A DNA stretch of 62,725 nt, counting the filler, from Chrysochromulina tobinii (Eukaryota): NCBI GenBank assembly GCA_001275005.1. It is 5 parts of 5 records of this genome, joined end to end, with 100 filler letters (N's around TTAATTAATTAA, not from the genome) between each part and the next. Parts side by side here need not be neighbours in the genome. Positions count along the whole stretch, not along the records: positions 1 to 16,216 come from JWZX01001313.1; 4 more parts are not named here. One strand, given 5' to 3'. The notes beneath the pieces are model-generated. The model did no database searches and was not told the DNA's origin. It worked only from the letters and a program-made list of their open reading frames with translations. Below are positions 871 to 59,373 of the stretch, piece after piece (positions within the stretch are counted from its first letter, which is position 1; every line of letters begins with the position of its first letter). Both the position numbers and the translations under genes were made by a program.

Positions 871-3353
871 TCATACATTGAGGGCATCTTTCTCACCGAG
901 ACCCGAAGCAGGTGCACGCAGGTCACATACTTCGATGGCCAGCTCCTCCTGCGCAGCCACCAAAAGATCGCGCTTGGTTCGCGCGTGGTGGTCTCGGTGG
1001 TACTCCGCATGGAGGTACGAGTACGCTTTGTGCCTGAAGGTCCGCTTGCGACCCACCGTGAAGCCGCGCGGAAAGAGGGCGTTCACGGTGTTGGAAAAAA
1101 AGAATTGCAGGAAGTCCGGCGCACGGTTCTTAATCTTGACCGCAGCAGAGAGCGCCAAGCGACCGCGCATGCCCACGTGGTTGAAACCAACCAGGAACAA
1201 GGTTCCGACTTTGCACTCGTCGCTCGCCAGCCGCAGCCGCACCGCGTCTGCAAGGGCGACGGCGCCGGCATCGCCAATGTCGTTGCTGCCCAGGTCGACC
1301 AACTGCAGCTCGCGCGCCTTGCCCATGGCGATGAAGGCCGCGAAGGATTGCAGGCCAGCGTCGCCTAAGTCGTTGCCGACGAAGAAAATCACCTTGAGGC
1401 CGGGCGCGACGCCACTGATCAGCGCGCTGCCGAGGGCCTCGACACCGCGTGGGCCCAGGCGGTTGAATCCAAGGAAGAGCTGCTCGAGCTGGGGCAGCGC
1501 GCCGGAGGAGAGGACGCCGCTGATGGAGGCGAGATGCTCGTCGGTGAGGCCGGTAAAGTTGAGATCGAGCCTCTTCAGGTTGACGCAAAAGTTGAGCGCC
1601 TGGCCGAGCCGTTCCGGCGAGCGCCACGGGTCCTTAGGGTCGAAGGGGATGCCGAAGAAAGAGAGCTCCTTGACGCAACCGAGGACGGCACGTGCCGTCT
1701 TCTCGTAGAGTGCGAGCACCTGCGCCCGGTCGGCGCCGTTGGTGAAACTGCGCTCCTTGAAGAGTTCCTCCATCCGCTCGGGCGTTGTCGGCAGCCTGCG
1801 AAGTGCTGCACGCTGCTTGCCGAGGTCGATGACGAGAGGCCAACCCGCCTGATGAGGGAGGCAATCAGGCTGATGAGGGAGGCAATCAGGGCTCATCAGG
1901 TTGATGACGAGGGGCCAACCCGCCTGCTGAAGGGTGAACGTCTTGCCGAGCTCCGCAGAGCACCGTTCGAACGTCGTCCAGCCGCGGCTTTCGTACGTGC
2001 GAATTGCATCGAACGATTTCGGCAGCTTCTTGGGCAGCTCGGTGAGCAGAACGACCGTCGTCTTGGAGTGCGCGTACCACAAGTCCATCGTGTGATCGAG
2101 TGCGAATTTCGTCGCCTGGGCCTGCGCCTCCGTTCGGCTGTCGCGGTAGCGCTCGGCCGCGCGCCGCTGGTCCTCGGTACGCTTCTCTTCGGCTATGAGC
2201 TCGGCCGGAGTCCACATCCTCGGATCCTTCTGAAAGAGGGAGGCCCAGTCGAAGAAGACGCCCATGTCGCAGAAGCCGTAGGCCTGGCACACGCCGAGCA
2301 GCCCAGAGCGGCGCAGCACGCCGAAGCTTGGGAAGAGGGTCTCCAGCCGTGTGCACAGCAGCCGCAGCTGCTCGCCATCGCAGTCTGGGTGCCTCGGTTC
2401 CAGCCAGCAACTGCGAGTGCACGCGGGGACATGCGGACCGTGTGAGAGGTGGGCGCCGGACACAATGAGGGGGATTGCAACTCAACGAGGGGGCGTTCGG
2501 CGCGACGTGACGCGTACTATGAGATGGCGACGATAGGGAGCAGGTCATCGACGTTGCGCTTGACAAACTTGCACGAGAAGATCTTGAAGAGCACGCGCAA
2601 CGCGCGCTTGAGCAGATTACCCTCACCAAGCTGCACCTCGAGCGTAAACGTCTCGTAAATCGAATAAAAGTCCACGCCGCGCTTCGCCTGCCGTGAGATC
2701 TTCTGCAGCTCGTCGACGCCGATGAAGGCGGCCTCAGGCAGCTCCTGCCGCCGCGGCAGGACGCCGCCGTATTCCCTGTGCACGCTGCTACCTGGCTGGC
2801 CGAGCGCGAGCAGCCACGACAGGCGCACCAGGCGCACCGGCCGCTCGCTCTCCTTGACGCCGTCGCCTTTGAGCGCTTCCCAGACCTCATCGTGGCCGAG
2901 GTAGCGCCGCGCAGCCGCCTGCGCCTCTTCGGAGGAGACGGCAGGGCTCGTACCTCTCGGGTGTGAGAGTGCCACCTCGCGAAGCGATTGGGATGGCTTG
3001 AGACGCTCCGAAGAGGGAATGCCACTGCAGGAGCACAGCCTGATGCCGACGGTCAGGCACAAGAGCGAGAGTGGCAGATAGATAAACTCCACACTCAAGA
3101 CGATTGCACTCACGATGCCCATGATCAGGGTCACGGGCAGGATGCACAAGTGGACCGCGAGGGGCATCGCGAGCAAGTCATGCAAGTAGAGGTGCGCCGC
3201 GAACACATGGACCGGAAAAAGAACGATGAGCAGAATGGGCGTGGCGATGGTCCCAATGAGCAGCATGGCCTGGATTACGTAACAGAGGGCGATTTGAATG
3301 GATGGCTTCCATGGCAGCGCGGTGCCCGACGGCAAAGTGCGGGCGGAGTTCAT
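871..3353 (-). CDS. Membrane-anchored HET-like domain + RI-type LRR protein (3 exons)
   Basis: ORFs 2517-3353 and 871-2463 join through GT-AG intron 2411-2517 (IVAISY|CWLEPRHPD). In-frame GC-AG intron 1849-1923. Hydrophobic N-terminal helices; HET-like motifs AISYCW, FFDWASLFQ, MDLWYAHS, YESRGWTTFER; C-terminal RI-type LRRs (LFLGFNRLGPRG, VDLGSNDIGDAG). Confidence 0.75.
1849..1923 (-). other. 75-nt GC-AG intron flanked by exon duplication
   Basis: Intron start copies the downstream exon (AGWPLVI encoded twice, 2 mismatches over ~28 nt); ends in two copies of CTGATTGCCTCCCTCATCAG. Confidence 0.7.
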
Positions 3354-3687
3354 CCACCAGGTGGATCCTGACCAACAAACATCGTTTTCCCACAGCCCGG
3401 AAGCGACCCATGGTACAATGTTCTCCCATGGTATATGTCCTGTGGGCGCTTCCGCGTCCGTGTGGTGGTTACAAATTGTGTGGACACTTGGGCCACGTGG
3501 CTAGAGGTCAGCACCCAGCCCCTGTACGCGATATCGCGATTCCTCTTCCGTGGTGTGGTTACAAATTTCGTTGGGACAGGTGGTTACAAGTGTCGTGAAA
3601 CGCAGCTGGTTACACTTCGTAGCGAGTACCTAGGAAGTTCCTAGTGCCAAGGAGCGCCGTATCGTGCACTTGGGACCACGATAGCAT

Positions 3688-3966
3688 GGGCTGTGTCGGC
3701 CACACCTCCGTCCATAGTGACCGTGGTCCTCGTGCTTGGGGGTCCGGAGTGTGTGCGCGCGTTGTGTTGAACAGCAGCAGCACCATCGGTACTATTGGGT
3801 TACGATAGGGGGGAGGGTCTCACCTTCCCCCGCCCGCCGCCGATTAACGGCCTGTGTAATAGCAGGCTGTGTCGGCCACGCCTCCGTCCATTGCGATAGC
3901 GGCCCCCGTGCTTGGGGGTCCGGACGGGAGAGCGCGCGCGTTGTGTGTGTTTCACAGCAGCAGCAC
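3688..3966. repeat. Two imperfect ~100-bp direct repeats
   Basis: GGCTGTGTCGGCCAC...GTGCTTGGGGGTCCGGA...ACAGCAGCAGCAC at ~3688-3783 and ~3866-3966. Confidence 0.7.
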
Positions 3967-4297
3967 AGAAATACGACACAGCATGGCCTGTACTGCCGTT
4001 CCGGTTGAAGACCCTGGGGATGCAGGAGACACGTTCACAGATATACTACGGTACGACCTATGCAGACACTCTGCGTCAAGCCCGACACGTCACGTTGCAC
4101 ATTGTCGTGCCCACGGTCCCAGACACCGCGCAGCGGCGTCGCGCGGTCGGGAGCCTTCTCGTTGTCCCCTGCGCACTGCACGCCCTTCTCAGTGTCCCCG
4201 CCCAACCTGCATTACGAGCACAAAGAGGGTGCTCGCCTCGGCGCCACACCCGCCGTCAACTCGCGCCGAGCAGCATGGTGCCCGGCCGGGCAGATCG

Positions 4298-4462
4298 ACT
4301 AGTACCATATAGCCCAAAAAGGGGGTGCCTGGCAGAACTAGCCCGAAAAGGAGGTGATCAAACTAGCCCAAAAAGGGGGTGATTGCACTAGCCCAAAAAG
4401 GTGGTGATCAAACTAGCCCAAAAAGGGGGTGATCGCACTATCCCAAAAAGGGGGTGATCGCC
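4298..4462. repeat. ~25-bp tandem repeat overlapping the PKS-NRPS stop codon
   Basis: About six copies of ACTAGCCCAAAAAGGGGGTGATC(GC/AA); the last encodes the C-terminal ITPFLG*. Confidence 0.85.
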
Positions 4463-7400
4463 TCGGCCACTCCCGCCGTCAACTCGCCGAACATCATCGT
4501 CCAGTGCGTGCCCGGCAGCTCGATCTTGTGCACCGTTGCCCGCGTCAGGTGCTGCAGCGAGCTCAGGAAGACGCATTCGCTCTGGTATGGGCGAGCGTCC
4601 ACGAGTGGGCAGCGCACGAGGGGGGTAGGCGTGGGCACGTGCGTGTCGAGCAGCCGATTGCATGCGACAAAGTGGCGCGCGGCGTTGGCACTGAGGCTCT
4701 CGAGCATCGCTTCGTCGTCGATCAGGGGAGCCAGCTGGGCGCGGAGCACCTGCCATTAGGTGCAATCAGGTTCAATCAGGTGCAATCAGGTGCAATCAGG
4801 TGCAATCGGGTGCAATCGGGTGCAATCATGTGCACTCGGATGCAACCATGTACATCAGGTGCAATAAGTTGCAATCAGGTTCAATCAGCATGGAGGGAAG
4901 CCAGCTGAGCACCTGCATGACCGCATCGCTGCGCGGGCTACCGTTGGCATCAAGACGCGGGCGGCCGTCCACATCGCTCGCTGTAGACGGATCGTGGAAC
5001 CCTCGGCCCTGCGTCTGCCCGAGTGGTGCATCGAACATGAGCACGGAGTGCACTGCTGGCAGAGGAGTGGGAAAGGTGTGTAGAGCTGGAGGCGCTGCGG
5101 AGGTGGGAGAGGGGTCGTCTTCACGCGCCATCTCGAGCGATCTCGCCTCGAGCTGACGCGCCATCTCGAGCGCCACTACACCACCGTACGACCAGCCGCC
5201 AAGCACGACGGCGGGCGACGCGCCCGCCATGGCGCCGCCCGCCACGGCGCCGCCCGCCACGCCGCCGCCCCCCAAGCCAAGTGCGTCGCTCATCAAGACG
5301 AGGCACTCCGCCGCAACCTCGGCGATCGACCCAAGCTGGAAGTCGCCGCCGTCGGTCAGGCAGCTGTCGTCGAAGGCGTACACGGGCCGTTGGTGGCCGA
5401 GGCGCCGGACCAGCGGCAGGTAGCACAGGCTACTTGCGCCTGCCGGATGGACCAAGAAGAGCGGCAGGTGCGTTGACGAATCCCCCGGCTGCAGGCACAC
5501 CATGCGCAGCTGGCGGGCGGGTGTGCCGGCGCTCGGGACGGCGCTCGACGCGCTGCCGCCGCCGTCCGCGGCGGTGGCGGCGGTGGCGGCGGTGGCGGCG
5601 GCGGCGGCGGCGCTGGCAGCGCTGGCATGCATTTGCGAGCAGATGCCGCGCACGGTGGGCTGTGCGAACAGTTGCTGGACCGTCAGCCGGGTGCCGAGCG
5701 CCGTCCTGAGCGCGAGCAGCAGCCGCAGGGCTGAGACGGAGTCGCCGCCTAGCCTGAAGAAGTGTGAACGTTCACAGCAGAGGGTCGCTACCGGTAGACG
5801 GAGGATGCTTGCCATCGCTTCACGCACCGCCGCCTCGACTGCGTCTGCTGGCTCCTCCACGGCGGGGGAGGTGCCCGACTCGGCGCCCTGCTGTGCGGAG
5901 CTTCGCCTGGTGGGCGGGGGGAGCCGTTTCCGATCCACCTTGCCGTTGGGGCTGAGCGGCACCTGCTCGAGCATCGTCCAGTGATGAGGGACCATGTAGT
6001 CGGGTAGCTTCTCGGCGCACAGGACACGGAGCCTGGCCTGCACGGCGTCGGCGTCGGCGGCGTCGGCTGTCCCGCCAACGGCTGTCCCGCCAACGGCTGT
6101 CCCGCCAACGGCTGACCCGCTAACGGCTGACCCGCTAACGGCTGACCCGCCAACGGCTGACCCGCTAACGGCTGACCCGCTAACGGCAGGCACCACGTAC
6201 GCGGCCAGCTTCCCTTCAAACACGGTAGCGGCCGCGCTCGCCACCGCAGCATCCTTGGTCAAGATCTCCTCAATCTCGCCGAGCTCGACGCGGAAGCCGT
6301 TCACCTTGACCTGCAATTTGAGGCAATCAGAGGTCATCAGAGGTCATCAGAGGCCATCCAATGCAATCAGAGGCCATCAGAGGCCATCGGAGGTCATCAG
6401 AGGCCATCAGAGGCCATCATCAGAGGCCATCCGATGCAATGAGAGGCCATCCGAGGCCATCGGAGGTCATCCGATGCAGTGAGAGGCAATGACCTGCGAG
6501 TCCTCCCGTCCCAAGATTTCTAGTAGCCCATCAGGGCGCAGACGACCAAGGTCGCCGGTTCGGAAGAGCATCGGTCCATTTGGGGTCGAAGGCGTCGTGT
6601 CGGGCGCGCCCGTGCGCAGGAATTGGCGCGCGCTCTTCTCGGGCTCCTGATGAGGGAGGCAATCAGAGGTCATCCGAGGCAATCAGAGGTCATCCGAGGC
6701 AATCAGAGGTCATCCGAGGCAATCAGAGGTCATCTGAGGCAATCGGAGGTCATCGGAGGTACCTCGTAGTAGCCCAACGCGACGCCTGCGCCGCCGATGT
6801 GGATCACGCCAGTAACCCATGGCTCGCAGTGATGGAGGTTGTCATCAAGGATGAGCATCGTCTGGTTGCGTAACGGCCGCCCGTACGGGATGGACGTCCA
6901 GTTGGGATCGGTGCTCAGCACGGCGCCCGGTGTGCCCTCGGGATGCAGCTCGTGCATATTCGACCAGATCGCGGCCTCGGTGGCGCCGCCCATGCTGATG
7001 ATGCGCAGCGCGGCACACTCGGACACGGCACGGATGCGCCCTGGGGAGAGCGCGCGCAATCCAACGAGCGATCAGAAGGCAATCGAGGTCAATCAAGAGA
7101 GATCAAGGGAGATCGCACCTGGGGAGAGCGCGCGAAACCAACGAGCGCTCAGAAGGCAATCAAGGGCAATCAAGGGCAATCAAGGGAGATCGAAGGAGAT
7201 CGATGGAGATCGCACCTGGGAGAGCGCGCGCAATCCAGTCTCCGCTCAAGAAGATGAGACGCAGGCAAGCGGGCAGCGTCCGGCCGGAATGCTCCGCATG
7301 CGCAACGAGCAACTCCATGAAGGCGGGCACGGTGTTCCAGATCGTGATCTGGTGCGAGCTCACGATCTCGAGCCAGATCTCGGGGTCGGGAGGGCTGATG

Positions 7401-10400
7401 AGGTCGTGAGGGGGCACGACCAACGAGGCGCCCGCGCCGAGCAGCCCGAAGACGTCATAGACGGATAGGTCGAAGCTGATGGACGAGAGCGCAAGCACGC
7501 GATCGGACGCACCGACGTCGAAGCGCTCGTTTAGGTCGAGGCACGTGTTCACGGCGCCCTGGTGGTGGCAACACACCCCTTTTGGAACGCCCGTCGAGCC
7601 CGAAGTATAGATGAGATATGCGAGCTCGCGGGGGCGCACGCGCCGTACTGGGCGCGGGTGAGCACGACGAGTGGCGTGCATGGCGTTCACGCCGACCGCC
7701 TCGTTCACACCGACCGCCTCGTTCACGTCAACGAGTGGCAATCCAACGGCTCGAAGCCATGCACACGCGCCGAGCGTGCTGGCGTCGCTCACGACGGCGC
7801 TCGCGTGGCTCAGCTCGAGGATCTGCTCGATGCGCTGCTGAGGCAGCTGGTCGGCGTTGATCGGCAGGTACGCGCAGCCCGCGCGCAGCACGCCCATCAC
7901 GGCGGCCACCTGCTCCCAGCCTTTGGTCGTCACGACGGCGACCACCGTGATCGAGCCGGGCGCTGTGCCGGGCGCTGTGTCGAGCGCCGAGCCAGGCGCC
8001 GAGCTGGGCGCCGCCGCCGTCTCGGGCGCCGTGCCGGCCTCTTCGGTGGCCGCCACTCCAACGTCCGCAAGCCGCGCCCAGACTGCCTCGGATGCGTGGT
8101 CGAGGGCGCGGTACGTGAGCGACGAGGACCGCCCACCCGAGGCATCGAGCCCGAGGACCGCCAACGCGTCGTGCCGAGCGCCCGTTGCATGCTCGGCGAA
8201 GAGCTCATGCAGCAGGCGTGTGTCGAGCTCGGAGGGAGGTGCGACCGGCAGCGCCGCCGTGGGCTCGGGGCGCAGCTCATAGACGAGTTTCGTCCACGCG
8301 CTCTCGTCGGTGCAGAGGGAGTGCAGCAGCCCCTCGTACATGGAGACCATCCCCGTCACCACCTCTGTGGGGAAGAGATCCTGCATGGACGCGAGCGAAG
8401 CCGGCGCCATCAGATGCCATTTGGTGCCATTGCCATCGGGTGCAATCAGGTGCCATCCGGTGCCATCCGGTGCCATCCGGTGCCATCAGGTGCCATCAGG
8501 TGCAATCAGGTGCAATCAGGTGCCACGCACCCGCATGATCTCGAGCAGCCACATGAGGCGCCCGTCGGGGTATTCCTTGACCGCATTCACCACGTACGAA
8601 CCGGGCGTCGCCTCTTGCACATGCACCTCGGTGAATTGAAGCTCGCGCCAATCGGACAATGCATGCTCGAGGCCCATCGCACTGACGAAGACGAAGGGTG
8701 CGACAGCGGCACCCGCTTGGTGGTGTACCTGCGTGGTCCGAGGCAATCCGTTGCCCTCAGAGGTCATCAGGTGCCATCAGGTGCCATCAGGCGTTCTCAG
8801 GAGCACACTCGGGCACACGGGCGCACTCATGTTGCAGTCCGGCGCAGTCAGGCGCCATCGGATGCAATCAGGTGCGATCCGGCGATGCCCACCTTGTTGT
8901 ACTGCTCCATGACCTCGACACCCGAGATCGACGCGTGCTCGAGATCTCGCATGAGCTCGTGCGTGAGTGCCTGGACGTGCTCCAGCACCGTCCTAGGTCG
9001 CTCAAGGTCAGCCTCGAGGAGGAAGGACGAGGAGAAGTTGCCGAGGATCTGGGAGGCGTCAGCATGCAATCACAGTGGTAATCAGTGGTAATCGGTGGTA
9101 CTCGGTGGTAATCAGTGGTAATCGAGGATCTGGGAGGCGTCAGCATGCACCGGGTGGCGATAGGGTGAGGAAGGCAATACGCGAGGCTATACGTGTGACG
9201 ATGAGCGGTACTCAGCAGTACTCGGTGGCAATCAGTGGTCATCAGTGGTCATCAGTGGCGCTCAGAGGAGGCGTGACCTTGGAAACGTCCTCGTGCACCG
9301 GGTGGCGCAGGCAGTGCAGGATGTTCAAAAGGAAGCGCGGGTGGCGAGCGAAGCGCGCCAGCACCAGGCAATAGATCGTCAGCATGACCGAGGTGGGCGT
9401 CACCCCGCGTGCGGCACAGCAAGCCTTGAGGCGCGAGAACATCTCGGCGCTCAGCACGGCGCCAATGTGACTAAACTCGCCCGTGGGGCGCCGTTGGCCC
9501 GGGGCCACAAGCATCGGCAGCTCCGGCGGCGGCGGCAGTTGCGGCACGCGATCCCACCAAAACGCCTTGGCAGCTTGGTACTCGGCGGAGGCCGCGAGCC
9601 CCGACGAGCCCTTGGCGCCGTCCTGAGCGCCGGTGAGGGAGAGGCAGTAGTCTTTGTACAGCAGCGAGCAAGCCGGCAGTTGGGCGTTCGGATCCTCGTA
9701 CAGGATCGAGAGCTGCCGGCGCATGGTCAGGTCGGACACCCCATCCATAATGAAGAGCGAGATGCAGAAGTGCATCGTCGACTGAGTGGGCGAGGTATGC
9801 GACACACGGCACTCGAAGAGTGGCCACGTCTCGGGGCGCGGACCTGTGGGGAGAGGGCGCGCCATGGTGAGCACTTGCATGCATGTGTGTATGGAAGAGT
9901 GGCCACGTCTCGGGGCGCGGACCGTCCCGAACCATCTGCGCCCTTGTGGCGAGCATCTGCTCGGGAGTCGCATGCCCATGCGGCGTCTCCACCGTGATCA
10001 CGTACTCGGGCACTCGCTCCAGCACGCGCATCATGCCGTCCGGCGTAACCACAGCGCGCCATGCCGGGTGGTGAGCACATAGCCGGTTCAGAGCCGCCTG
10101 CAGGCGTGCGATTAGAGGTCGTCAGAGGTCGTCAGAGGTCGTTAGAGGTCATTAGCGGTCATCAGAGGTCATTAGCGGTCATCAGAGGTCATCAGAGGTC
10201 ATTCATTAGCGGTCATCAGAGGTCATCAGAGGTCATCAAAGGTCATCAGAGGTCATCAGAGGTCACCTGCAGGCGCGAGATGTCGATCCGTCCCTTCCAT
10301 TGCCATTCAAAGTAGATCTGCGGGTTGAGCCCCTTCTCGGAGAATTCGGAGATGTGCAAGCCCACATAGTACGCCCGCGTGATGCCGATGAGTGGGAAGG

Positions 10401-13400
10401 GCTCGTGCGCCCTCTCGTGTGCATGCACCACCTGAAACAAGGGTGCCTCCTCCCCTGCCCTTCCTTGTATGGCAAGCCCGTGCTTCGCGTACGCGTCAGG
10501 CTGATCGAGCCGTTGGAGCGCCGTCTTGAGCGCCACCTGATCGTCCACGTGCCTGGCCAGCTGGCGTACGGTCGGCTTCTGGAAGACGGTGCGGATCGTG
10601 AGCTTGTACCCGCCGCGACGTCCTATCTCCTGTGAGGCAGAGAGGCCACGACAGAGGGGATCAGAGGGGCGATCAAAGAGGCCATCAGAGAGGCCATCAG
10701 AGAGGCCTTCAGAGAGGCCATCAGAGGCCATCAGAGGCCATCAGAGAGGCCATCAGAGGCCATCTGAGGCCATCTGAGAGGCCATCAGAGTCCATCAGAG
10801 GCCATCAGCTGAGAGGCCAACCGAGAGGGGATCAGGTCCTACCTGCACCAGCCGCAGGCAAAGCAACGAGTCGCCGCCTAATTGGAAAAAGTGAGCATCG
10901 AGGTCGATGGCTGTGGGGCCATCGAGCTTGAACACGGCCGCAAAGGCCGCTGCAAGCTGCAGCTCGGTCTCGGTGGTGGGCGGCGACACGACTGTATGGA
11001 CCGCCGCCGACGTAATTGACGTAATTGACGTAATTGACGTAATTGACGTAATTGACGTAACTGTATGGACCGCCGCCGACGCCACCGCCGCCGACGACGA
11101 CGACGACGCTGCCGCCGCCGGCGCCGCCAGGGGGCGCGCGGGCTGCTGCACGCTCGCACTTGGGGCCGATGGAGGGGGCGTCGTGCTGGGCACGGCGGCG
11201 GGTAGCCCGCGCTTGAGGGTGGCGGCGATGGTGGTTGCGAGATCGGTGACGCTCAAGACAGCGCTCGACGGCGTGCCCGGGCCCGCGGCAGTTGCGGCGG
11301 TCGTGCTCACCACGGCGCCTGCCATCCGCGGCGGCGGCAGGGTGTGCGCAATCTCGCCCACGGAGATGAGGGGCGAAGCAGCGAGATGCGTGAGCGTGAG
11401 CACGATCGCCTCGAGCATGCCCTCGAGAAAGGCGCCGTCGTGGGCGTCGCTCTCGGACGTGGCCACGACGCTCAGCAGGCTGTGGGGAGCGGCCGCCGAG
11501 CCGCGCTCCATTGCGAAGCGGACGGTGAGCGGCATGCCGATGCGATCGTAGATCGTAGGGGGGGCGGCGCTCACGCCGCCGTCGAGCTCGAGGCCCCATG
11601 CGGCCGATTGGTAGTCGACGATCACGAAGAAGAGGTCGCCATCTCGCACCTGTGGGGAAGGGAGGGCACCGCGCCGTGGTGAGCACTTGCATGCGAGCCG
11701 GGCCGGATTCAGATCGCGATCTCGGACCGAGCTCAGCTGCTTGATCTTCGTGAGCGGGTAGCTCTCATGTAGCTGACACAAACCGAGCTGCCGGTGAATC
11801 GCACGCGCCGTCGCGGCGGCGCCCGCCGCGCCCACGAGTGGCACACGAAGAGGCACCGTGTTCATCACAGGCCCAATGACCTGATGAAGAATTCAATCAA
11901 TAGGTCATTAGATGCCAATCAGAGGTCATCAGAGGCCAATCAGAGGTCATCAGAGGCCCAATGACCTGCGCGAGCTGCGGCACGGGCGCCGTGCGTCCCG
12001 ACAGGGCACACCCAAAGACGACCTCGTCGGCATCGGCCCCCTCGTACACCCACTGGACGATGGCCCACGCGGTGTGGCAGAGCGCAGCGATCGTCACCCG
12101 CTCCTGCACAGCAAGCGTCCTCAGCCGCTGCAGCACGGCGCTGTCGAGGACACACCGACGGCGCGTGGCGACGCCGGTCGCGGTTTCAGAGCAGCACATC
12201 TTTAAGGCGCCCAAGCCCGCCGGGATCGGGCGCGCCGTGCTGGGCAGGCTGTGCACCGCCTGCTGCCAGAACGCCTCGGAAGCGGAGCCCGGCTCGGCGC
12301 TTAGGGCGGCTTCATGACGCAGCTTTACCTCGTACGAGGGCGGCGGCGGCAGCGGCACGCCCGGCGTGTTGTACCCATGCGCGACGGCGTCGACGAGGAG
12401 GCGGAGGGACCATCCATCTTCGATGATGTGGTGGATGGACAGCAGCATCAAGTGCTCCTCTGCGCCAAACTGAAGCACGCGGACGCGAAGCAGCGGCGCG
12501 CACTCGAGATTTGAAAGCTCCGCGCGCTCCGTGGCCATCACCTGCTGCGCGAGCCCCTCGCGCGCGCGCACGCTCGTGCAATCGGGATGCACGCTCACGC
12601 CGAAAGGCAACTCGGCAGTCGGTTCGACGACCTGCTGCGGCTGCGGGAGCGCCTGGAGGTCGAAGCGCGTGCGCAGCATCGGCGTGGTGGCGACCAGCTG
12701 ACGCCACGCCGCGTGCAGTCGCGCCGTGTCGAGCGCCCCGTGGAGCTGCCACATGATGGAGAGGACAAAGGGGTGCTGCTCGGGGGAGCGGGCGGGGGAG
12801 GACAGTCAGCATGCAAATGGGGAGGGCAATCAACGGGTGCTGCTCGGGGGAGCGTGGGAGAACAGTCAGCATGCAAATTGGGAGGGCAATCAGCATGCAT
12901 GCACGCGCACCTGCTCGGGGGAGCGCAGGTGCTCGAAGATCATCGCGCGCTGGAGGGCGGAGGTCTCCATCACGAGCCCATCTCGGCGCGCGGAGGTCTC
13001 CATCACGAGCCCATCTCGGCGCGCGACACTTCGTTGATTGCCCTCCCCATTTGCATGCTGACTACCCTCCATTGCGATCCAACCTCGGTGCGCAGGGGGC
13101 GGCAAATCGCTCTCGACGACGGTGAGCCATCCATTCACATTCACAGAGTCGGACGAGCTCAGCGAGTGTGAATCGGCCGATCCGGCAAAGTCGACGGTCT
13201 CGGTCTCGTCAACCACGTCATCCTCGGATCCTAATTTGGACGAGATCTCGATCTCCGACTTTGTCTCCGGTTCGAGCGCCGTCCCGAGCGCCTCGAGGTG
13301 TGACATTGCCTCCTCGACCAGCCGTTGTACGCTCAGGTTCAGAAGCTCGTCCGGCTGGAGGTACATCTGCACGCGCGCCCGGCGCGGCGCGTCGTGGGGA

Positions 13401-16216
13401 AAGAGCCCGTCCAGGATCTGGTCACGGAGCTCGACGGACGAAAGGGAGTCGAGACCCCTCTCCACCAGAGGTGCCCATTGCAGCGCCTCCATCGCCGCCT
13501 CTGACGTGCCCTCGGCCAGCGGCAGCACCGTATTCACAGCCTGCTTCACGAGGCTCAGCACCGACGCACGGCTATGGCGCTCAACACGGCGCTCGGCGCT
13601 GCCGCGGCCACTTCCGTTGGCTTCGAGCACGCCCTCGGAATGGTGATCAACACGGCGCCCAATCTCCGGCGCCGAGCTCGCGAGCGCAGCGCCCGCGCCC
13701 GCGGCAGCGCTCGCGCTCTCGGCAGCGCTCGCTCGCGTCGTCGTCGGGCGCCAGCGCCACGGGTAGACTTGCGTGCGGTAGGCGGCAGCGCCGAGATGGG
13801 CACCGAGCATCGCTCGGAGGGGTGCGCACTCTGCAGGCGCGGCGGGGCGTCCGCGGCGACCTGATGGACAACGTGGGCGGCATGGGCGGCGCCGCTTGCA
13901 GCAGTGCGTGCGCGTTGCTGCCCCCAAACCCAAACGAGCTCACGCCCGCGACGGCGCTCGGTTCGGCGGCGGAGTCTGGGGGGGAGGCGCGCCGGAGGGG
14001 GGTGCCCGCGACGGCGCTCGGTTCGGCGGCGGACTCCTGGGGGGAGGCGCGCCGGAGGGGGGTGCTCTGTACCGGTAAGGCGAGCCCGTACGCCCGTAAA
14101 AAGGGGGCCACCTGGGGGTTGAGGGCGCTCAGGTGGCCATTGGTGAACGTGCTCGCCAGCCGGAGCGCAAGCGCCGTCTTGAGCATGCCCGCCATCCCGG
14201 CGGCGCCCTCGAGGTGGCCCACACAGGCCTTGATGGCGCCGATCATCACGGGCCGTTGGCGGTGTGGGGAGCGCTCGACGAGTGCGGCATGCAACGCAGC
14301 TGCTTCGATTGGGTCGCCGAGTGCGGTGCCCGTACCTGCGGGGATAATGCGCTGTGGTGAGCGCTTGCATGCAAGGCAGGTCATCAGTGGCAATCAGCGT
14401 ACCTCCTCACTTGCATGCAAAGCAGGTCATCAGGTGGCAATCAGCGTACCTCCTCACATACATGCAAGGCAGGTCATCAGGTGGCCATCAGCGTACCTCC
14501 TCACATACATGCAAGGCAGGTCATCAGGTGGCCATCAGCGTACCTCCTCACATACATGCAAGGCAGGTCATCAGGTGGCCATCAGCGTACCGTGTGCTTC
14601 GAGCAGCGTGACCTCGGCCGCCGTAACGCCGCCGTCAGCCAACGCTTGAGCGAGCAACGCCTGCTGTGCCCGCGCACTCGGCGCCGTGAGCCGCGCGGTG
14701 CGTCCGTCGCTGTTGACGGCCGTGCCGCGGATGAGGCACAGGGGCGGCAGCAGCCTTCTGCGCGAGCTCATCGGGCGTCGAGCTCCACCCTCGGGAGATG
14801 TGAGCTCCGCCTCGGGAAATGTGAGCTCCGCTTCCGGAGATGTGAGCTCCGCCTCGGGTGATTGGAGCTCGACAAGCAGCGCGCCGCCGCCCTCGGAGCG
14901 CACGTAACCGTCGGCGCGAAGGGCAAAGGCCTTGCATCGCCCCTCCACCGAGAGCATGCCCGCATGCTTGCGCACCTGATGAGGGAGGCAATCATCGGGT
15001 CATCAGTGGTCACCAGTGGTCATCGGTCGTCATCAGTCGTCATCAGTCGTCATCAGTCGTCATCAGTCGTCATCAGCATGCTTGCGCACCGCGAGGGCGC
15101 GAGGCGAGAGTAGCAAGTCGAACGCGCCCACGACGACGCGGTCCACGCCGCGGCTCGGCTCTCGCAGCAGACGCGCCGCCAGGTGCAACGCGGTGCCTGC
15201 CGACGAGCACGCGGTGTCGACGACGAGGCTCGCGCCGCCCAGCCCGAGCACATACGAGAGACGGTTCGCAGCGATTGAAGGGGCGACGGAGGTGCCCAAG
15301 AAGGCGCCGCCCCGGGCGCCGTGTGCACTCGAGGCGAGCTCGAACTGCCAGTCGTGATTTGAGAGCCCGACGCACACGGCCGTGCGGGTTTGGCTCGCCA
15401 TGTGCGACGGGGAGCGCAGCAGCTCGCCCAGTGTCTTCGGACGACTTTTGGCGGGGGCGGACGAGTCGCCCAAGACGGCGCCCACGAGAATCTCCGTGCC
15501 GAGCTCGAGAAGGAGCCGTTGATGAGGATCCATTGAGATTGCCTCCGCCTCCGCGATCCCAAAAAAGGAAGCTCCAAACCGCTCGGCGCCCTGCGGCGCG
15601 CTCAAGAAGCCGCCGAACGCCTCGCCGCCGCCGCAGGCATCGCCGCTCCAGCCCGGCGGGCCGGTGTGAATGGCATCGCCGTGTGAACGTAGCAGGCTTG
15701 TGAGAGCGTCGGAGCGGTTGCAGCCGCCCGGTAGGCGGCTGGACGTGAGCACGAGCGCGATGGGTGCCTCGACGAGCGGGCGAGCGAGCGAGGCGCGAGA
15801 CGCGCCGGCAGCGGAGCCCGCGTCAGCGGCAGCAGCAGCAGCAGCAGCAAGGGAGGGAGCGGGAGGGAGGCCGTCGCCACCGCCGCCGCTTTGGCTGGCG
15901 GCACGAGCGTCAAGGTAGGCCAGTACGGCGCGCGGCGTCGGGTGGTCGAATAGCAGCGTGCTCGGCAGCGGCGCCAGCTGCGGCGCCACCTCGCGCTCGA
16001 GTAGCGTGAGCAGCTCCGAGAGCGCGAACGAGTCAAACTCCATGTCCATCAGGGAGCTGTCGAGGCAGCTGGCGAGATCGATCGAGATTGAGAGGCTCGC
16101 ACCCACGCGCTGAAGCGCCGCCCCGAGCGCGCCGTCGAACTTAGGCGCCGATGCCGCCGGTGTCGCGGACGCCGCCGGCTTCACAGACAACGCCGTCGGC
16201 GCCGCCGCCGCCGCTG
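4438..16216 (-). CDS. Hybrid PKS-NRPS megasynthase, 5'-truncated at contig end: ACP-KS-ACP-C-PCP-Cy-A-PCP-TE
   Basis: ACP EFDSFALSEL; KS MDPHQRLLLE, DTACSS, EAHGTGTALGDPIE, GHLEGAAG, VSSFGFGGSNAH; ACP GLDSLS; C HHIIEDGWS; PCP FFQLGGDSL; Cy-like EPFPLIGITRAYYVG, WPLFECRV, GVTPTSVML, LGNFSS; A YTSGSTGVPKG, GGATE, FRTGDLGR, QVKVNGFRVELGEIE, NGKVDR; PCP FFRLGGDSV; TE HPAGA, GWSYGG, PGTHW. Fourteen GT-AG introns checked by hand join successive ORFs in phase; one junction (~13730-13900) is unresolved. Confidence 0.93.
4750..4912 (-). other. GT-AG intron with (TGATTGCACC)n repeats and 10-nt junction duplication
   Basis: GCAG|GTGCTC at both ends; phase 0 join of TE exons. Confidence 0.85.
6070..6190 (-). 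repeat. In-frame 15-bp coding tandem repeat (GSAVS/GTAVG)
   Basis: About eight copies of AACGGCTG(A/T)CCCGC(C/T) inside the A-domain C-terminal subdomain. Confidence 0.85.
6311..6493 (-). other. GT-AG intron with (TGATGRCCTC)n repeats
   Basis: GCAG|GTCA at both ends; restores GREDSQ|VKVNG. Confidence 0.9.
6647..6762 (-). other. GT-AG intron, 10/20-nt repeats, ends CTGATTGCCTCCCTCATCAG
   Basis: Restores ALGYYE|EPEKS in phase 0. Confidence 0.9.
7041..7215 (-). other. GT-AG intron whose 3' end copies the upstream exon end, with internal tandem duplication
   Basis: TGGATTGCGCGCGCTCTCC(C)CAG at exon end and intron end, plus a diverged internal copy; phase 1 join. Confidence 0.85.
8381..8530 (-). 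other. GT-AG intron with (TGATKGCACC)n repeats
   Basis: Phase 0 join EIMR|DLFP. Confidence 0.85.
8729..8892 (-). other. GT-AG intron with 10-nt repeats
   Basis: Phase 0 join YNK|VHHQ. Confidence 0.85.
9049..9277 (-). other. GT-AG intron with (TGATKACCAC)n repeats and duplicated acceptor
   Basis: Restores EDVSK|ILGNFSS; TGCATGCTGACGCCTCCCAG-ATCCTCG present twice. Confidence 0.88.
9844..9922 (-). other. 79-nt GT-AG intron whose first 29 nt exactly duplicate the downstream exon
   Basis: GTCCGCGCCCCGAGACGTGGCCACTCTTC after both donor and acceptor; phase 1 join. Confidence 0.9.
10098..10266 (-). other. GT-AG intron with (TGATGACCTC)n repeats, 10-nt junction duplication
   Basis: CGCCTGCAG|G at both ends; phase 0. 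Confidence 0.88.
10630..10842 (-). other. GT-AG intron with TGATGGCCTC(TC) repeats
   Basis: Splits the PCP: LRLVQ|EIGRRG. Confidence 0.88.
11650..11727 (-). other. In-frame 78-nt GT-AG intron with diverged exon duplication
   Basis: GTCCGAGATCGCGATCT vs exon GTGCGAGATGGCGACCT; shares GCATGCAAGTGCTCACCA...CCCCACAG cassette with 9844-9922. Confidence 0.75.
11881..11965 (-). other. 85-nt GT-AG intron with 15-nt junction duplication
   Basis: CAG|GTCATTGGGCCT at both ends; phase 0. Confidence 0.9.
12776..12910 (-). other. GT-AG intron with two copies of the upstream exon end
   Basis: CGCTCCCCCGAGCAG at exon end, mid-intron and intron end; two TGATTGCCCTCCC..TTTGCATGCTGACT cassettes. Confidence 0.88.
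12982..13083 (-). other. Probable in-frame intron carrying the shared cassette in antisense orientation
   Basis: CGAG|GTTGG...CGAG|AT; 33-nt tandem duplication gives an alternative acceptor at 13015. Confidence 0.5.
14336..14590 (-). other. GT-AG intron made of ~47-nt tandem repeats
   Basis: Restores EAHG|TGT (phase 1); GGTACG at both ends; ends in GCATGCAAGCGCTCACCACAGCGC...CCCCGCAG. Confidence 0.9.
14976..15089 (-). other. GT-AG intron with 15-nt junction duplication and (TGATGACGAC)n
   Basis: G|GTGCGCAAGCATGC at both ends; ends TGATTGCCTCCCTCATCAG. Confidence 0.9.
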
Positions 16217-32390: not shown

Positions 32391-32994
32391 TCATGACCTG
32401 GGGCTGCACCGGCTGCACCACGACGCCGCCTGGCAGCGCAGCGCGCCGCGCGCGATCGCCTCCTCGTCGCCGCGCGAGCAGTGGCCGCTGTGCGCGCTGC
32501 TCTGCAGCAGCCGGGTCACCGGGTGGATCTCGCAGCCGATGGTGCCGTCCGCCCCCTGCTCCCCGGTGCTGAAGATGACGCGCTGCACGCCGAAGGCTTC
32601 GAGCGTGCGCAGGCAGCGCATGCACGGTTGGGAGAGGCCAAACCGGCCGGCGGGATCGCGTTGCGCCGTGCCCTGGAGCTGGCGCCCCTCGGGGAGCACA
32701 CGCACCACGTACAGGTCGCAGTGGCGTAGGCTATTCTTGCGCCGCTTCGGGTGATCATAATTGTAAGCTTGAGCCTTGTAAAACCCACGGAACGGCGACC
32801 ACAGCCGCCACCTCCGAGTGAAGCGAGGTCGCGTTCGCCGCGCCGGGGACCGAGGTGTTGCGCGAGCGCGCCGAGTTGTGGCCGACGCCGAGCACCTTGC
32901 CGCCGCGCACGAGCAGGGCGCCGTGCTTCGTTGTCTCAGATGATTGCTCTGCCTCGACGGCAGCAAGCGCCAAAAAGCGCTGATGGCGGCACAT
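32391..32994 (-). CDS. Zinc-dependent cytidine/dCMP deaminase-fold protein split over two frames
   Basis: KHGALLVRGGKVLGVGHN and SLHSEVAAV in one frame; DLYVVR and SQPCMRCL..GVQRVIFS in the +1 frame. Confidence 0.8.
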
Positions 32995-41170: not shown

Positions 41171-41390
41171 CGGCGGCGATGGCGGCGGTGGTAGCAGTGG
41201 CACCTCGAGCGCTCGAAGCGACGCGAATGGCGCGGTCACGCGAGAGGTACCGCCCGACACGGCGCCGAGCCTGAAAAAGCGCGAGGCACCGTCCGAGACG
41301 ACGCGGGGGAAGGAGGAGGCGGCCGAGGATGGCGAGACTGAGGAAGGTGAGCTCGCGCCACCGAGCAAGAAGCCGCGTGAGGAGGAATGA
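41171..41390 (+). repeat. Diverged duplicate of the cyclin gene 3' end (46511-46740)
   Basis: Near-identical sequence with substitutions, fewer EEGEI units and a different stop. Confidence 0.85.
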
Positions 41391-46466: not shown

Positions 46467-46519
<53 letters not shown>

Positions 46520-46751
46520 TGGCGGCGGTGGTAGCAGTGGCACCTCGAGCTCCCGAAGCGACGCGAACGGCGCGGTCACGCGAGAGGCGCCGCCCGGCAT
46601 GGCGCCGAGCCTGAAAAAGCGAGAGGCACCGTCCGAGACGACGCGGGGGAAGGAGGAGGAGGCCGAGGAGGGCGAGATTGAGGAGGGCGAGATTGAGGAA
46701 GGTGAGCTCGCGCCACCGAGCAAGAAGCCGCGTGAGGCGATGCGGACATGA
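45035..46751 (+). CDS. Cyclin T/K-family transcriptional cyclin (4 exons)
   Basis: FLQESGHRLRL|..ATAIVFYHRFY|VATTCLFLASKVEETPKKL..ERELLRVLGFDLSVEHAY|RPL..IINDSLRT; introns ~45292-45385, ~45470-45573 (GC donor), 45789-46012. Confidence 0.88.
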
Positions 46752-51021: not shown

Positions 51022-51263
51022 TACAGGAGGGTGAACGTGTGTACCAGTTTGAGGAGGTACGCGTTACTGCTTGCTTAAGAGGTTGCATGCTACGCTCCTG
51101 TACTCATGCTTCACAGTCAACAAGACTGGTCACATGCAGGTGCTGCCGCACTTGAAGCGGATTCCAAAAATGGAAGTGAACCATGGTGAACGACGCACAC
51201 GCAGACGGCGCAGCCCTTCCGGCCTTCCGCAGCGCCTTCCGCCTACCATAAAATCAAACTCGA

Positions 51264-52981
51264 ATGATACTTGCGGTTTCGCTACTCATCGGCCTCCCGC
51301 TTGAGGCGATTGGCAATAGTGAAGTGAGCAGGCAGCCCAGCCGCGCACAGGTGCTCGTCATCGTCTCTGACTCGGGAAGCGGCACAACAGACTTCGGCGA
51401 AGCGCTCAATAAACACCCATGCATGTTCAACTTGGGAGAGCCCTTCATGCAAAGCGCAATGATGTGGTCTAAGAGCGAGATCGCCGGATGCGTGTATCCT
51501 GACGCACTCTTCGATGCGGACTCTGGCCTTCTCAAGCACAACAACAACACGCAGCTGACTCGCAAGATCGGTGAGCTCAGATCCAGCAAAGCTCGGCAAG
51601 CTTGGCAAGAGACAGGCAAGCGACCGGACGAGAATCTCGCCGGTGACTCTCCCTTGCTGTACGAGGGCCTGGACTACAACCTCGCGGACTACTTCGTCCG
51701 CATCCGCGATCACATCTGCGCGAGTGTCCCCGATGAGATCTGCCCACTCTCAGATTGCACAATCTCCCTGAAGATGTTCCCGCAGTTCGTGAACGCCCAC
51801 ACGGGCCCAACACCGCCCACACCAGGCAGGTGCACGGACGCGCGTAACGAGAAGGCGATGACGGCGTGGAAGCAGGCGCTCGAATCCATGAAGAGCAACC
51901 CGAAGGTCGCGACGTTTGCGCTCCTCCGGAACGAGCTCGATAGGCAGTTTTCCGTCTTCCGCAGATTCAGTCTCCCTGGTACTCAGTTTGACTGCAGCAC
52001 GCCGCGCGCGCCCAGCGCGTTCGCCAACGTGTCGACCAACTACACCGACACCCAGATGCAGATCGAGAGCTGTTGGAAAGATGCGGCGGGTGCCGACGAG
52101 TGCGTTGGCCACGCTCTTGGGCTCGTAGGCCTGTCATCCATGCCGGTTCTAGGGGACGCGGGGAAGGCCGTCAACATCATGCAGGCGGGCGAGGTCTCGT
52201 TCTTGTACCACGCGGCGCAGGCGAGTTTCTCCACGGAGCACGGACCCCTGATTGCCACGATCAATTGCCACCATCAACTAACCATCAACTGCTCACCAAT
52301 TGCCACACCAATCGCCACTATAATTGCGCGCAGGCGAGTTGCGCCACGGACCCCGACGCCATCTTCAAGCGGGTGGGGCAGGACAAGTGCGTTGGACAAG
52401 TCGATGCGTTGGACAAGTGCGTCATAATAGAGGGCCGCTCTCAACCTCTGCACTCCCAACCCCTAGCCAACGCGGCGTTCGCGGCACCAAAGGGCGTCTC
52501 GGACCTAATCTCGGACCTACCGGACGTATCGAGCGATGCGGTGGTGAAGAGCGACGGCGCGTTGGTGTTCGCCAACTACGTCACCAACCTTGTGCGCCCT
52601 CAGCAGGGCCACCCTAGTACGCCGGGCGAGAGCTATCCTCGTTCATGGCCCGATAGCTTCCCGGCCCCTCATCCGAGCCGAGCCCTGCAGCCCGAGGACC
52701 AAACTACGCAGAAGCACGCCGTAGGTGCCGCCGACTGCCGGTGCCTCGCCCCTAGCGAGTGCGACCAGCTTCTGGACCTGGTGCTGCCCGGCACCCCGAT
52801 GGTTCAGCAGGCCAAGTGTGGCTGCTCGCCCAACTGCATGCTGGTGCACTGGCAGCCAGTGCACAAGATCACGGAGCCTGTCGACATGGGCCATGACGCC
52901 CTCCCTCCCCTAACACCTTCTCCCGCCCCCGAACCAGATGGCGTTGCGCATGCTCTCAGTCTGATGCCATCGATGTTGTAG
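51264..52981 (+). CDS. Secreted sulfotransferase-like protein (2 exons)
   Basis: Signal peptide; SDSGSGTTDFGEALNKHP..LGEPF resembles a PAPS-binding loop; GC-AG intron 52221-52333 joins ORFs 51264 and 52073 in phase 0. Confidence 0.55.
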
Positions 52982-53389
52982 CTACTTACGGTACTGTGTG
53001 CAGAACGTCGACGACAAATACATCGACCCCCGCGATCCCAGTGTACTATGATGCGACGTGCGGGGGATGTGCGTGCTCCAGACCACCGAGGGGCGGATCG
53101 AAACCAGTCCGTCTGGTGCGTTGCCAGACTGCCATGTCGGTCACGTGTTGGTCCCGGCGCCCCGCGGCATGGGCGGGGCGGCGAGGCCGGCCGCGTGCGT
53201 GGAGCTGCGTGTGTACCCGGACCACTGTCAGTCACGCAGATCCAGGAGATGCGTGATCCATGATGGATCGCAGATTCGTCGCAGTGTGTCTGACGTACAT
53301 CGTTGGCGTGGAGAAACGAAAACGTCTTTAAGTAAATATCGAGCTCCCACCTCCAGACTGTAAATACTAGTGCGGGCTCGTCCAACGCT

Positions 53390-56931: not shown

Positions 56932-57031
56932 NNNNNNNNNNNNNNNNNNNNNNNNNNNNNNNNNNNNNNNNNNNNTTAATTAATTAANNNNNNNNNNNNN
57001 NNNNNNNNNNNNNNNNNNNNNNNNNNNNNNN
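56932..57031. other. Artificial contig linker
   Basis: Same linker. Confidence 0.97.
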
Positions 57032-57049
57032 TTTGCTGGAGTTGCACGT

Positions 57050-59271
57050 GTGCGAGGCGGTGACAGCCCGTTGATGCTGGCGTGCACGCCCATTGTATTC
57101 CGCAAGGACGGCCAAAGCAGCAGAACAAGACAACAATCGACTCCAGACCTCCCCGGTGGTCTAGTCAACATCAACGTGCTTTCGATGTCCGCCGACAGGA
57201 TGGCGCATGCGATGCGGGCGAGCGTGAGTCAAAGCGCCTTCGAGTCGGTGACGTTGAAATCGGTGGGGACGCATCCTTACGTGGTGGTCGCATTCGTCCA
57301 GCTCTTCACCCACCAGACGACATTCAAAAATGACGAGGAATGGCTAGAGGCACAGTACCCGAAACTCGTGCAACTACTTTACGGGCCCGTAGCAATCGTG
57401 ATGGCATACAAGGAGCCGAGACAACTGCTTTTGGTGTCCGTTGACGACTTGCGTCCAGGTTTAGACGGCATGAAGATCCCGCCACCGACGATCTTCAAAG
57501 CAGGGACAACAGCTATTCGCGCCATGATCGCCAAGATGATCACTGAAGAGAAGGGCAAACTTCGCGCTGACGCCAACGATAAGATGCTCTTTGCAGCTGA
57601 GTGGCCAAACGGCCGGGAAAGCGGGCTCAGTCCGAGATCGAAGCTGGATCAGCTAGTATCCATGCAGTGGGCGATCGGCGCATTCCGTGCCTCGAGCATG
57701 CTGACGGGTAATGGGAACGCGCAGCAAGAGCATCAGAAGGCCGCGCCCGCCTTAACCGCGCCCAAGCCAAAGAAGCAGAAGCTCGATGCGCATTCAAACA
57801 ATGATTCTCCGAATTCTTCGGCCGGGTCGAGCATGTCGACTGTACGCCCGAGTGCCCATCAAACGAAGCCGCCTAGCTCGTTGGTGCCGAAACGAGGCGC
57901 CTCCCAATCTTTGGTACCATCGACCATGAATTCAGACCCTGCCGTCATGGTGTTTGATGAGGACGACATTGCATCCCTTTCCGAATCGCTGCGGGAAGCG
58001 ACTTCACCGTCGAAGTCAGGACCCGAGAATGAGCTCATGAGTTCAGTCAATACCATGATGGCAAGGGCAAGAGACAGGTTAACCTTTGATGCCGAACCAC
58101 GGGAAGTGGTATTCAAATATCTTTCGACAGCAGCGAGCAAGTTGGTGACTGAAAAGATCCTCCCAACACTGGAGCGGATGAAGATCTACGTCGCACTCGC
58201 AAAGAACCCGTGCAAGGTGGCTGAACTTGAAGCTATCAAAGTGGAAGCAGATCAGTATGAGCGAACCGCACTCTCCGCTATTGAGCTCTTGCACTGTGAG
58301 TGCAAGAGATACAAACACGACTACACTCCTCAAACGGGGACAAAGATGAAGATCGAGCAGGCAAAGAGCCACGTTCATACTGCAGTAGATGAAGCTCGGG
58401 AGAAGCTGAACAAGGCGGCCGCTAGCAAGGCGAAGAAAGCAAAACTGTCGGTGGATCCCTTTCCCCCCCTTGCCGCCCAGCAGGTGGCGGGCCACGCCGC
58501 GTCCGCCGCCCAGGGACAAGCCGCGCTCGCCGCCCAGCAGCGAGAGATCGCCGCCCAGCAGGCGGCGGGTCAAGCCGCGCTCGCCGCCCAGCAGCGAGAG
58601 ATCGCCGCCAAGCTAGCGACAATTGAGGCAAACTCAAAGAGAACTGCAGAACGGGAGAGGGAATCCCAACGACAGGCAGCGGAGCTGAACAGAGTTGAAA
58701 ACTTGGCGCTGGACGCCAGCAACAGAGCAGCGCTCGCATTGCAGTCGCAAGTCGCTGTTGTGCAATCGGCTCTTGAGTCGAAGGAAAAGGCAGAGCAGGA
58801 GGCACATAAGCTCAAGATCGAGAGGGAGGAGATGAATAAGAAACTTATTAAACTTCAAACGGAACAAGCAGTACGCAATGCCCAATCTGACGAGGAGGCG
58901 AAGGGAAGGGTAGCACTTGAGGCGATGCGGCAAAAGATGGAGGAGCGGATGGAAGCGAACGATAAGCAGTTGAACCAGTTGAAGGTCGAGAATGCCAAGA
59001 CTGTAGCAACCATGGAAACGAAGGATGCGGTGCATCTAACGGTCGAACAGCTTCAGAACCAACTGACGCAAGCATTGGTGGGCCAGGCTCTCGCGAAAGG
59101 CGCTTTCACCGGTCTTTTCGCCTCCGGCGGCGGCGGTGGTCCAAGTGGGTCGAACAATGCGCAATGGTTTCAGGCGAACCTTAAGCCTCTCTTGATGGGA
59201 GGATCAAGCTCGGGAGACGGCTTATCGGCGCCGCCACGTCCTCCAGAGCTGATGCCACCTCCGCCGCCCAG
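57050..59271 (+). CDS. Hypothetical coiled-coil protein, 3'-truncated
   Basis: >700 uninterrupted codons; long E/K/Q/A heptad region; duplicated AALAAQQREIAA. Confidence 0.65.
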
Positions 59272-59371: not shown

Positions 59372-59373
59372 AT

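Follow-up and report, generated by a model that had tools for sequence, protein, structure and literature searches.

How does a single gene come to hold fifteen introns, many of them filled with short tandem repeats, and where would such introns come from? The question is raised by a PKS-NRPS hybrid gene in the window, the whole 62,725-nt stretch of Chrysochromulina tobinii DNA analysed here (GC content about 63%; eukaryotic). How spliceosomal introns are gained has long been an open question, and for most gained introns no source can be traced. Our main reading, to which we assign a probability of roughly 55%, is that these introns are recent gains, made when intron pieces served as templates and were copied into variable duplications, with slippage and selection afterwards.

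The host gene and its introns

Pfam domains of the hybrid gene follow the order ACP-KS...C-PCP-C-A-PCP-TE, and an assembly gap cuts off its 5′ end. The spliced parts are stop-free over 648 aa and 2410 aa, on either side of a frameshift near 13844, which may be a consensus error, since DNA run X1 has one base fewer at this place. Fifteen introns were delimited by hand, 12 of them in phase 0. RNA contigs from four runs skip all 11 introns in 6200-12100 at the predicted lengths and with GT-AG ends; thus, removal from RNA, as expected of spliceosomal (U2-type) introns, was seen at 11 of 11 joints (I4-I14), while I1-I3 and I15 are supported by the open spliced frame and by alignment to homologues. 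A contig of run X14 enters I13 by 39 nt and could be DNA or a retained intron.

For comparison, we used the 7 ordinary introns of three housekeeping-type genes in the window, which were deduced from open frames and not from RNA; we take the three genes to be QCR6, a cyclin and Alb3. The conserved Alb3/YidC exon has its closest named relative in Prymnesium parvum (72%), with diatoms at about 57%, which identifies the organism as a haptophyte. Most neighbouring genes at 17650-44830 are long single frames without filler introns, and the filler introns therefore cluster in few genes.

Several other features were observed in the window. A diverged second copy of the 3′ end of the cyclin-like gene (41172-41390 and 46510-46750) adjoins an assembly gap. 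By eye, an apparent frame shift lies at 32760-32820 in a deaminase-like minus-strand frame, and a long frame at 59372-62725 resembles a copia-type retrotransposon (integrase/reverse-transcriptase-like words), of which 57030-59270 may be a gag-like part. A dispersed repeat at 3600-3970 shows very high summed depth in run X1 and has a match in L009, one of the metagenomic loci described below.

The introns are listed below by the elements that recur in them, namely decamers (10-nt units with a TGAT core), module A (TGATTGCCTCCCTCATCAG, the 19-nt acceptor end of I1, I13 and I0), module B (a second acceptor module, without decamers, in I2, I5 and I8), a donor module starting with GTACG, and cassette C.

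4438..16214, minus strand: PKS-NRPS hybrid gene, host of the 15 introns (Pfam domains)
14976..15089, minus strand: I1, 114 nt (open spliced frame and homologue alignment); GT from a 14-nt copy of the downstream exon, decamers, acceptor module A at 14976-14994
14336..14590, minus strand: I2, 255 nt (open spliced frame and homologue alignment); five 47-nt units, each with the GTACG donor module at its start, the last unit (14336-14402) being cassette C with acceptor module B at its end
12776..12910, minus strand: I3, 135 nt (open spliced frame and homologue alignment); AG from a 15-nt copy of the upstream exon end, a 60-nt duplicate inside
11881..11965, minus strand: I4, 85 nt (RNA joint, one run only); exact 15-nt junction repeat continuing into decamers
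11650..11727, minus strand: I5, 78 nt (RNA joint); no decamers, acceptor module B, decayed 17-nt duplication, length a multiple of three
10630..10842, minus strand: I6, 213 nt (RNA joint); units of 10-12 nt, no clear duplication
10098..10266, minus strand: I7, 169 nt (RNA joint); array only, AG and the G of GT from a 10-nt duplication
9844..9922, minus strand: I8, 79 nt (RNA joint); downstream exon copied exactly over 29 nt, acceptor module B, no decamers
9049..9277, minus strand: I9, 229 nt (RNA joint); decamers, acceptor duplicated internally
8729..8892, minus strand: I10, 164 nt (RNA joint); decamers
8381..8530, minus strand: I11, 150 nt (RNA joint); decamers
7041..7215, minus strand: I12, 175 nt (RNA joint); tandem dimer of a 77-nt unit, AG from the upstream exon end, copied over about 22 nt with one indel
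6647..6762, minus strand: I13, 116 nt (RNA joint); array of 20-nt period plus module A (6647-6665)
6311..6493, minus strand: I14, 183 nt (RNA joint); array, 8-nt junction repeat
4750..4912, minus strand: I15, 163 nt (open frame); array, 10-nt junction repeat, a variant copy with another array length in run X12
1849..1923, minus strand: I0, putative 75-nt GC-AG intron of a neighbouring gene; 26-nt exon copy plus doubled module A, the same intron being present in the paralogue L109
52221..52333, plus strand: filler intron predicted from the open frame of the plus-strand gene at 51242-52990; 13-nt exact junction repeat, one TGAT decamer, decayed 10-11-nt units
13032..13063, plus strand: exact inverted copy, 32 nt, of I3 filler, in an exon and in frame

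Decamer arrays and splicing

The sequence-only reading had described the introns as filled with tandem TGAT decamers of common period and orientation, homogenised within each array and different in each intron. With regard to strand and location, the description held: all nine decamers it named lie on the minus (sense) strand and in introns only, with none in 9,466 nt of exon, and TGAT pairs at a spacing of 10 nt number 37 on the minus strand versus 0 on the plus strand, 36 of the 37 falling in filler introns, all in sense orientation. Local homogenisation was also confirmed in 155 arrays, the probability of unit identity being 0.33 within an array, 0.08 between neighbouring arrays and 0.04 between loci. 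The claim of a different repeat in each intron was overstated, as 6 of the 9 decamers are present in two to four introns and a single unit is the most frequent in 26 of 155 arrays, and decamers are not found in every intron: I5 and I8 lack TGAT, and period-10 pairs number one in I2 and zero in I3. Stops in all three frames, which had likewise been predicted, occur in 12 of the 15 introns but not in the remainder, such as the stop-free I5. Arrays are absent from all 7 ordinary introns of the window.

A scan of metagenomes with module A yielded at least 140 stretches, and 135 loci (458 kb) were analysed. All 135 were selected on module A, which applies to the genic and strand counts of the arrays, and many derive from mixed-culture assemblies and are not independent; duplicates were removed by flanking sequence. 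Array spacings in these loci are commonest at 10, 20 and 30 nt, and shoulders lie at 11-12. A codon model for the coding strand, which was correct in 14 of 15 known cases, revealed that the predicted coding strand holds 72 of 78 scored arrays (59 of 61 confident calls) and that 1 of the 78 has non-coding-like flanks, among the matches listed. Coding-like sequence follows 104 of 112 modules versus 22 of 194 intergenic controls, with sense outscoring antisense in only 89 of the 112, again among the matches listed. Read depth over arrays in run X1 was hundreds of times that of single-copy pieces; since summed contig depth is no copy number, this value only signals many similar contigs.

In 157 array cores, the observed/expected ratios of AG and GT were 0.18 and 0.17, respectively, and three-frame stops were present in 147 cores on the sense strand versus 3 on the reverse strand. 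Selection for splicing through AG/GT avoidance accounts for the strand bias at least as well, and the sense strand of the decamer would be a ready-made intron interior. Among the ordinary introns, CTGAT, CTGAC or CTCAC lies 21-39 nt from the AG in 4 of 7, and the use of CTGAT as a branch point is plausible on this likeness of motifs.

It had been suggested that selection explains the arrays, which would have arisen and persisted for redundant branch points and for all-frame stops that expose retained introns to NMD. CTGAT-like motifs near the AG of ordinary introns agree with this explanation, as do in-frame stops in 13 of 13 TGAT-bearing introns and the frequent intron retention reported for another haptophyte in the accessible part of PMC4028052. 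Nevertheless, NMD as the cause is not supported by intron lengths, since multiples of three are not depleted (20 of 51 called introns), and by the 78-nt I5, which is stop-free yet spliced. Moreover, the module B introns function without decamers or stops, the 7 ordinary introns are array-free, and selection alone leaves unaccounted for both the exon duplications and the shared stretches of 19-41 nt. We give this explanation little credence.

The alternative suggestion, reiterative copying of a short template, was supported in part. Copying from a template agrees with 19-nt and 41-nt stretches shared at unlinked loci, whereas a single master decamer does not emerge: 53 different modal units occur among 155 arrays, and the template apparently was other introns. 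A search for a master copy or small RNA gave no Rfam match in the window. Slippage is active, as unit identity is higher within arrays and one array differs by 80 nt between L002 and L004, otherwise near-identical alleles.

Exon copies and shared modules

The main feature, absent from the sequence-only reading, is that many of these introns consist of an exon duplication of variable length (8-59 nt) with a filler inside it that recurs in other introns. An exact junction repeat of at least 8 nt (8-30 nt) flanks 7 of the 15 PKS-NRPS introns, or 9 of 15 if mismatches are allowed, and 6 of 15 show no clear duplication. None of the 7 ordinary introns carries such a repeat, the maximum in this small set being 4 nt. 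Across the loci, a copy of the downstream exon stands at the start of 51 of 129 terminal module-A introns (control 1.8%), and 78 of the 129 fall below the duplication threshold, among the matches listed; the 51 include no fewer than one wrong call, L036. These duplications spread broadly over 8-59 nt, shorter ones being indistinguishable from chance, and 16 of the 51 are perfect. Flanks sufficed for the repeat test in 138 of 157 array cores, and 46 of the 90 arrays with an end other than module A lie between exact repeats of at least 10 nt (control 2.4%); the AG often lies inside the duplicate, and a few of these array-only duplications are repeats inside introns. Direct repeats thus exceed the ordinary-intron background, as break repair predicts, with shuffled-pair controls at about 2%. 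The duplication provides the missing splice site.

Duplicate length and insert length are anticorrelated (rho -0.53), the shortest intron being 50 nt, and arrays are no longer where the duplicate has decayed further (rho -0.05). Junction microhomology is weak, with a mean of 1.6 versus 0.7 nt in an estimate that is biased upward.

Module A is the terminal acceptor of introns at no fewer than 129 distinct sites, with GT or GC next in 108 of the 129 among the matches listed. Module B occurs at 14 sites, GT being next in 14 of 14 and a duplication present in 11 of 14 (control 3.8%). The GTACG donor start followed by decamers was found in 26 places, some of which are internal duplicates. Cassette C is common to I2, L009, L030 and L056; 41 nt of it are identical between I2 and L056, and the AG of the cassette is provided in L056 and L030 by sequence copied from the end of the upstream exon. 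The longest exact matches between introns and loci span 16-41 nt. Three geometries exist, in which the acceptor is carried, the donor is carried, or the array stands alone. Another unit lies exactly 10 nt upstream in 69 of 194 module-A copies among the matches listed, which is consistent with a period inherited from copied templates.

A viral source was rejected: module A had 0 matches in viral contigs and module B had 1 (L136), and no viral relative of the I0 gene was found. L136 is a contig from a viral collection that may be host DNA; it ends, at 880-1060, in the acceptor of module B, preceded by a 10-nt array built from another unit. A prokaryotic source was rejected, as the 5 module A matches in 596 billion bases compare with about 4 expected by chance. 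In L135, module A occurs on both strands, in copies inverted relative to each other; this may be an artefact of assembly or amplification.

Ends that are fixed on one side and variable on the other, duplications of variable length, nearly identical copies of cassette C at four sites that are not linked, and the bias to genes and to the sense strand would all be expected if the introns were an Introner in the sense of a non-autonomous mobile element, moved by an enzyme that leaves variable target duplications, with arrays that decay and expand later. Candidate routes would be a HUH transposase of the Replitron type or target-primed reverse transcription of intron RNA after its excision; according to the accessible part of PMC10288648, Replitron-1 leaves variable duplications and a Replitron protein is reported in one Chrysochromulina genome. 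Such an element is at odds with the three geometries, with the finding that exact module A or module B ends only 5 of the 15 introns of the window gene, and with the lack of an end-to-end family beyond cassette C. No stable terminal hairpin was detected in 6 introns (z -2.4 to +1.7). An element of this kind strikes us as unlikely. Folding, which was no better than that of shuffles in 5 of 6 introns, does not support a hairpin or TIR element; a 5-8-bp stem is possible between decamer and module A end, and insert starts vary in phase.

Gain versus remodelling

The same junctions were considered under the opposite premise, namely that old introns were remodelled in place with no net gain, their ends being homogenised by conversion, and that a splice-site-spanning duplication followed by loss of the first unit left an exon-derived end. 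Internal splice-site-spanning duplicates in I2, I3, I9 and I12, acceptor-spanning duplicates inside introns at 27 of 307 module ends (among the matches listed), and many further local tandem duplications in the exons and at the 3′ end of the gene fit this premise, and the junction pattern could arise secondarily from such common acceptor-spanning duplications inside existing introns. GT or GC also follows AG in 4 of 7 ordinary introns. No close intronless allele was found: 0 of 66 junction queries returned an uninterrupted close DNA homologue outside its own locus, no presence/absence difference appeared in close pairs among the 135 loci, and the shared introns are all kept in L002/L004, L109/window and L050/L108, the alignments of L066/L076, L037/L053, L020/L037 and L011/L048 being uninformative at shared intron sites.

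More distant comparisons argue against remodelling. DNA is uninterrupted at the I1 position in the paralogous KS domain of L003 and at the I6 position in the second PCP domain of the gene itself. Two single-ORF homologues, P0135 (3747 aa) and P0003 (1567 aa, on a 27-kb contig), run across all the intron sites with 0 or -1 extra residues at those of I1-I14; they are 47-58% identical and may be transcript contigs. In addition, the relatives of the gene are mostly bacterial NRPS with a few from protists, and the nearby ordinary introns are unaffected. Remodelling without gain appears to us improbable.

Local duplication in the gene was observed in several other forms. Exonic tandem duplications lie at 6064-6187 (15 nt), 11009-11060 (9), 12957-13025 (33), 13944-14065 (60) and 14780-14870 (21), the five periods all being multiples of three; the gene is a local duplication hot spot. 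At 4310-4459 there are six 25-nt tandem copies of its last codons and stop, and an X12 contig is about two units shorter. L109 carries at 380-437, downstream of the I0 intron, a 57-nt in-frame insert of duplicated local sequence that is absent in the window paralogue. The inverted copy of I3 filler at 13032..13063, which an X11 RNA contig (12996-13627) covers without a gap, points to DNA-level template switching.

From the observed splicing, strand, duplications, shared modules and length variation we infer the gain, together with the enzyme, the DNA or RNA template and the branch-point use that it would involve. Recent gain by templated copying would begin with a break or template switch in an exon, by which 8-60 nt of the site would be duplicated, and 30-150 nt from another intron would be inserted at the duplicated site. 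The copied piece would be an acceptor end (modules A and B), a donor start (the GTACG module, cassette C) or a decamer array alone. The insertion would be kept when the duplicate provides the missing GT/GC or AG, so that splicing restores the old mRNA. The decamer would suit the role of filler because there is almost no AG or GT on its sense strand, which also holds the branch-point-like word CTGAT and stops. Slippage would then alter the copy number and homogenise each array, and the period would therefore be inherited while the unit drifts.

Plain break repair leaves the near-absence of intergenic copies unexplained, and this scarcity of copies between genes hints at a coupling to transcription or splicing. 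A broader reading, which we hold tentatively and think possible though doubtful, is ongoing genome-wide intron birth without a dedicated transposon, in which pieces of introns are written into exon breaks. The source might be the gene's own pre-mRNA or excised intron RNA, the breaks would occur in transcribed exons, and the variable duplication would complete the splice sites; the decamer array would act as a self-propagating intron seed that fills single genes and leaves their neighbours intron-free. If this were true, the class would be filtered out by current Introner screens.

Comparison with known systems

The intronic repeat itself may already be known from another haptophyte. In 2013 Read et al. 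reportedly found 10-11-bp tandem repeats enriched in introns of Emiliania huxleyi, a likeness in period and location to those described here, and are said to have drawn no link from these repeats to exon duplications or intron gain.

Introners whose splice sites are supplied by TSDs have been described by Gozashti et al. 2022 (PMC9860276), which we compare on the basis of its accessible portions. As in that system, a short copied sequence brings one splice site and the target duplication the other, both orientations of splice-site supply occur, and the genic bias is strong. In contrast, the duplications here are 8-59 nt instead of 3-9 nt (4 nt in their Chrysochromulina example), and the copies are partial and of low complexity, with one end exon-derived. 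The same portions of PMC9860276 report Introners in E. huxleyi and many Chrysochromulina MAGs, and name C. tobinii and C. parva only in the supplement's list of screened genomes; two motif words had 0 matches in the portion of the supplement examined. According to these portions, the screen compared both intron ends and removed low-complexity families, and it would likely miss introns of the present kind. Judged by the properties of Introners, similar sequence does recur at four or more unrelated sites (module A, module B, cassette C) and the bias to genes and sense strand is present in these loci, which were selected on module A, but end-to-end similarity is absent, one end being a local exon copy in the called cases, and there is no short fixed-length TSD of the DNA-transposon type.

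In break-repair intron gain, direct repeats are made at a staggered break. The introns studied here resemble it in the direct repeats that flank them and in filler from elsewhere, and differ from it in that the filler is drawn repeatedly from a common repertoire that derives from introns and already contains splice signals, the repeats are long, and the pattern is found at dozens of loci in less than 0.5 Mb of selected DNA. As in intron gain by tandem genomic duplication of an AGGT segment (PMC3443670, accessible part), an exon duplicate provides splice sites and leaves the coding sequence unaltered; unlike in that case, the duplicate is too short to serve as an intron, and non-exonic filler, often with a splice site, lies between the copies. 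Replitron-1 of Chlamydomonas, as described in the part of PMC10288648 noted above, shares variable-length target duplications, fuzzy ends and copy-and-paste, whereas the shared 50-nt termini, terminal direct repeat and robust hairpin are absent here. For other introners, those without target duplications, a proposed route is reverse splicing into R-loops (PMC10996645, accessible part). The accessible parts of PMC4580454, PMC4028052, PMC12480563 and PMC13746701 hold no description of this intron class, and the literature within our scope, which excludes subscription papers, gave no account of introns made of a duplication plus filler.

At dozens of sites one can still read both the duplicated target and the motifs of the source, and public DNA and RNA runs exist for this alga, which makes gain, source and mechanism directly testable. 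Gene models in the alga will be misled by nested duplicates of donors and acceptors, which matters for its annotation. If templated gain is true, this route is undercounted by surveys that require similarity from end to end and discard families of low complexity, and it would unite tandem duplication, break repair and intron copying, so far treated apart. Overall, the process seems to work like an Introner but without fixed target duplications or end-to-end identity.
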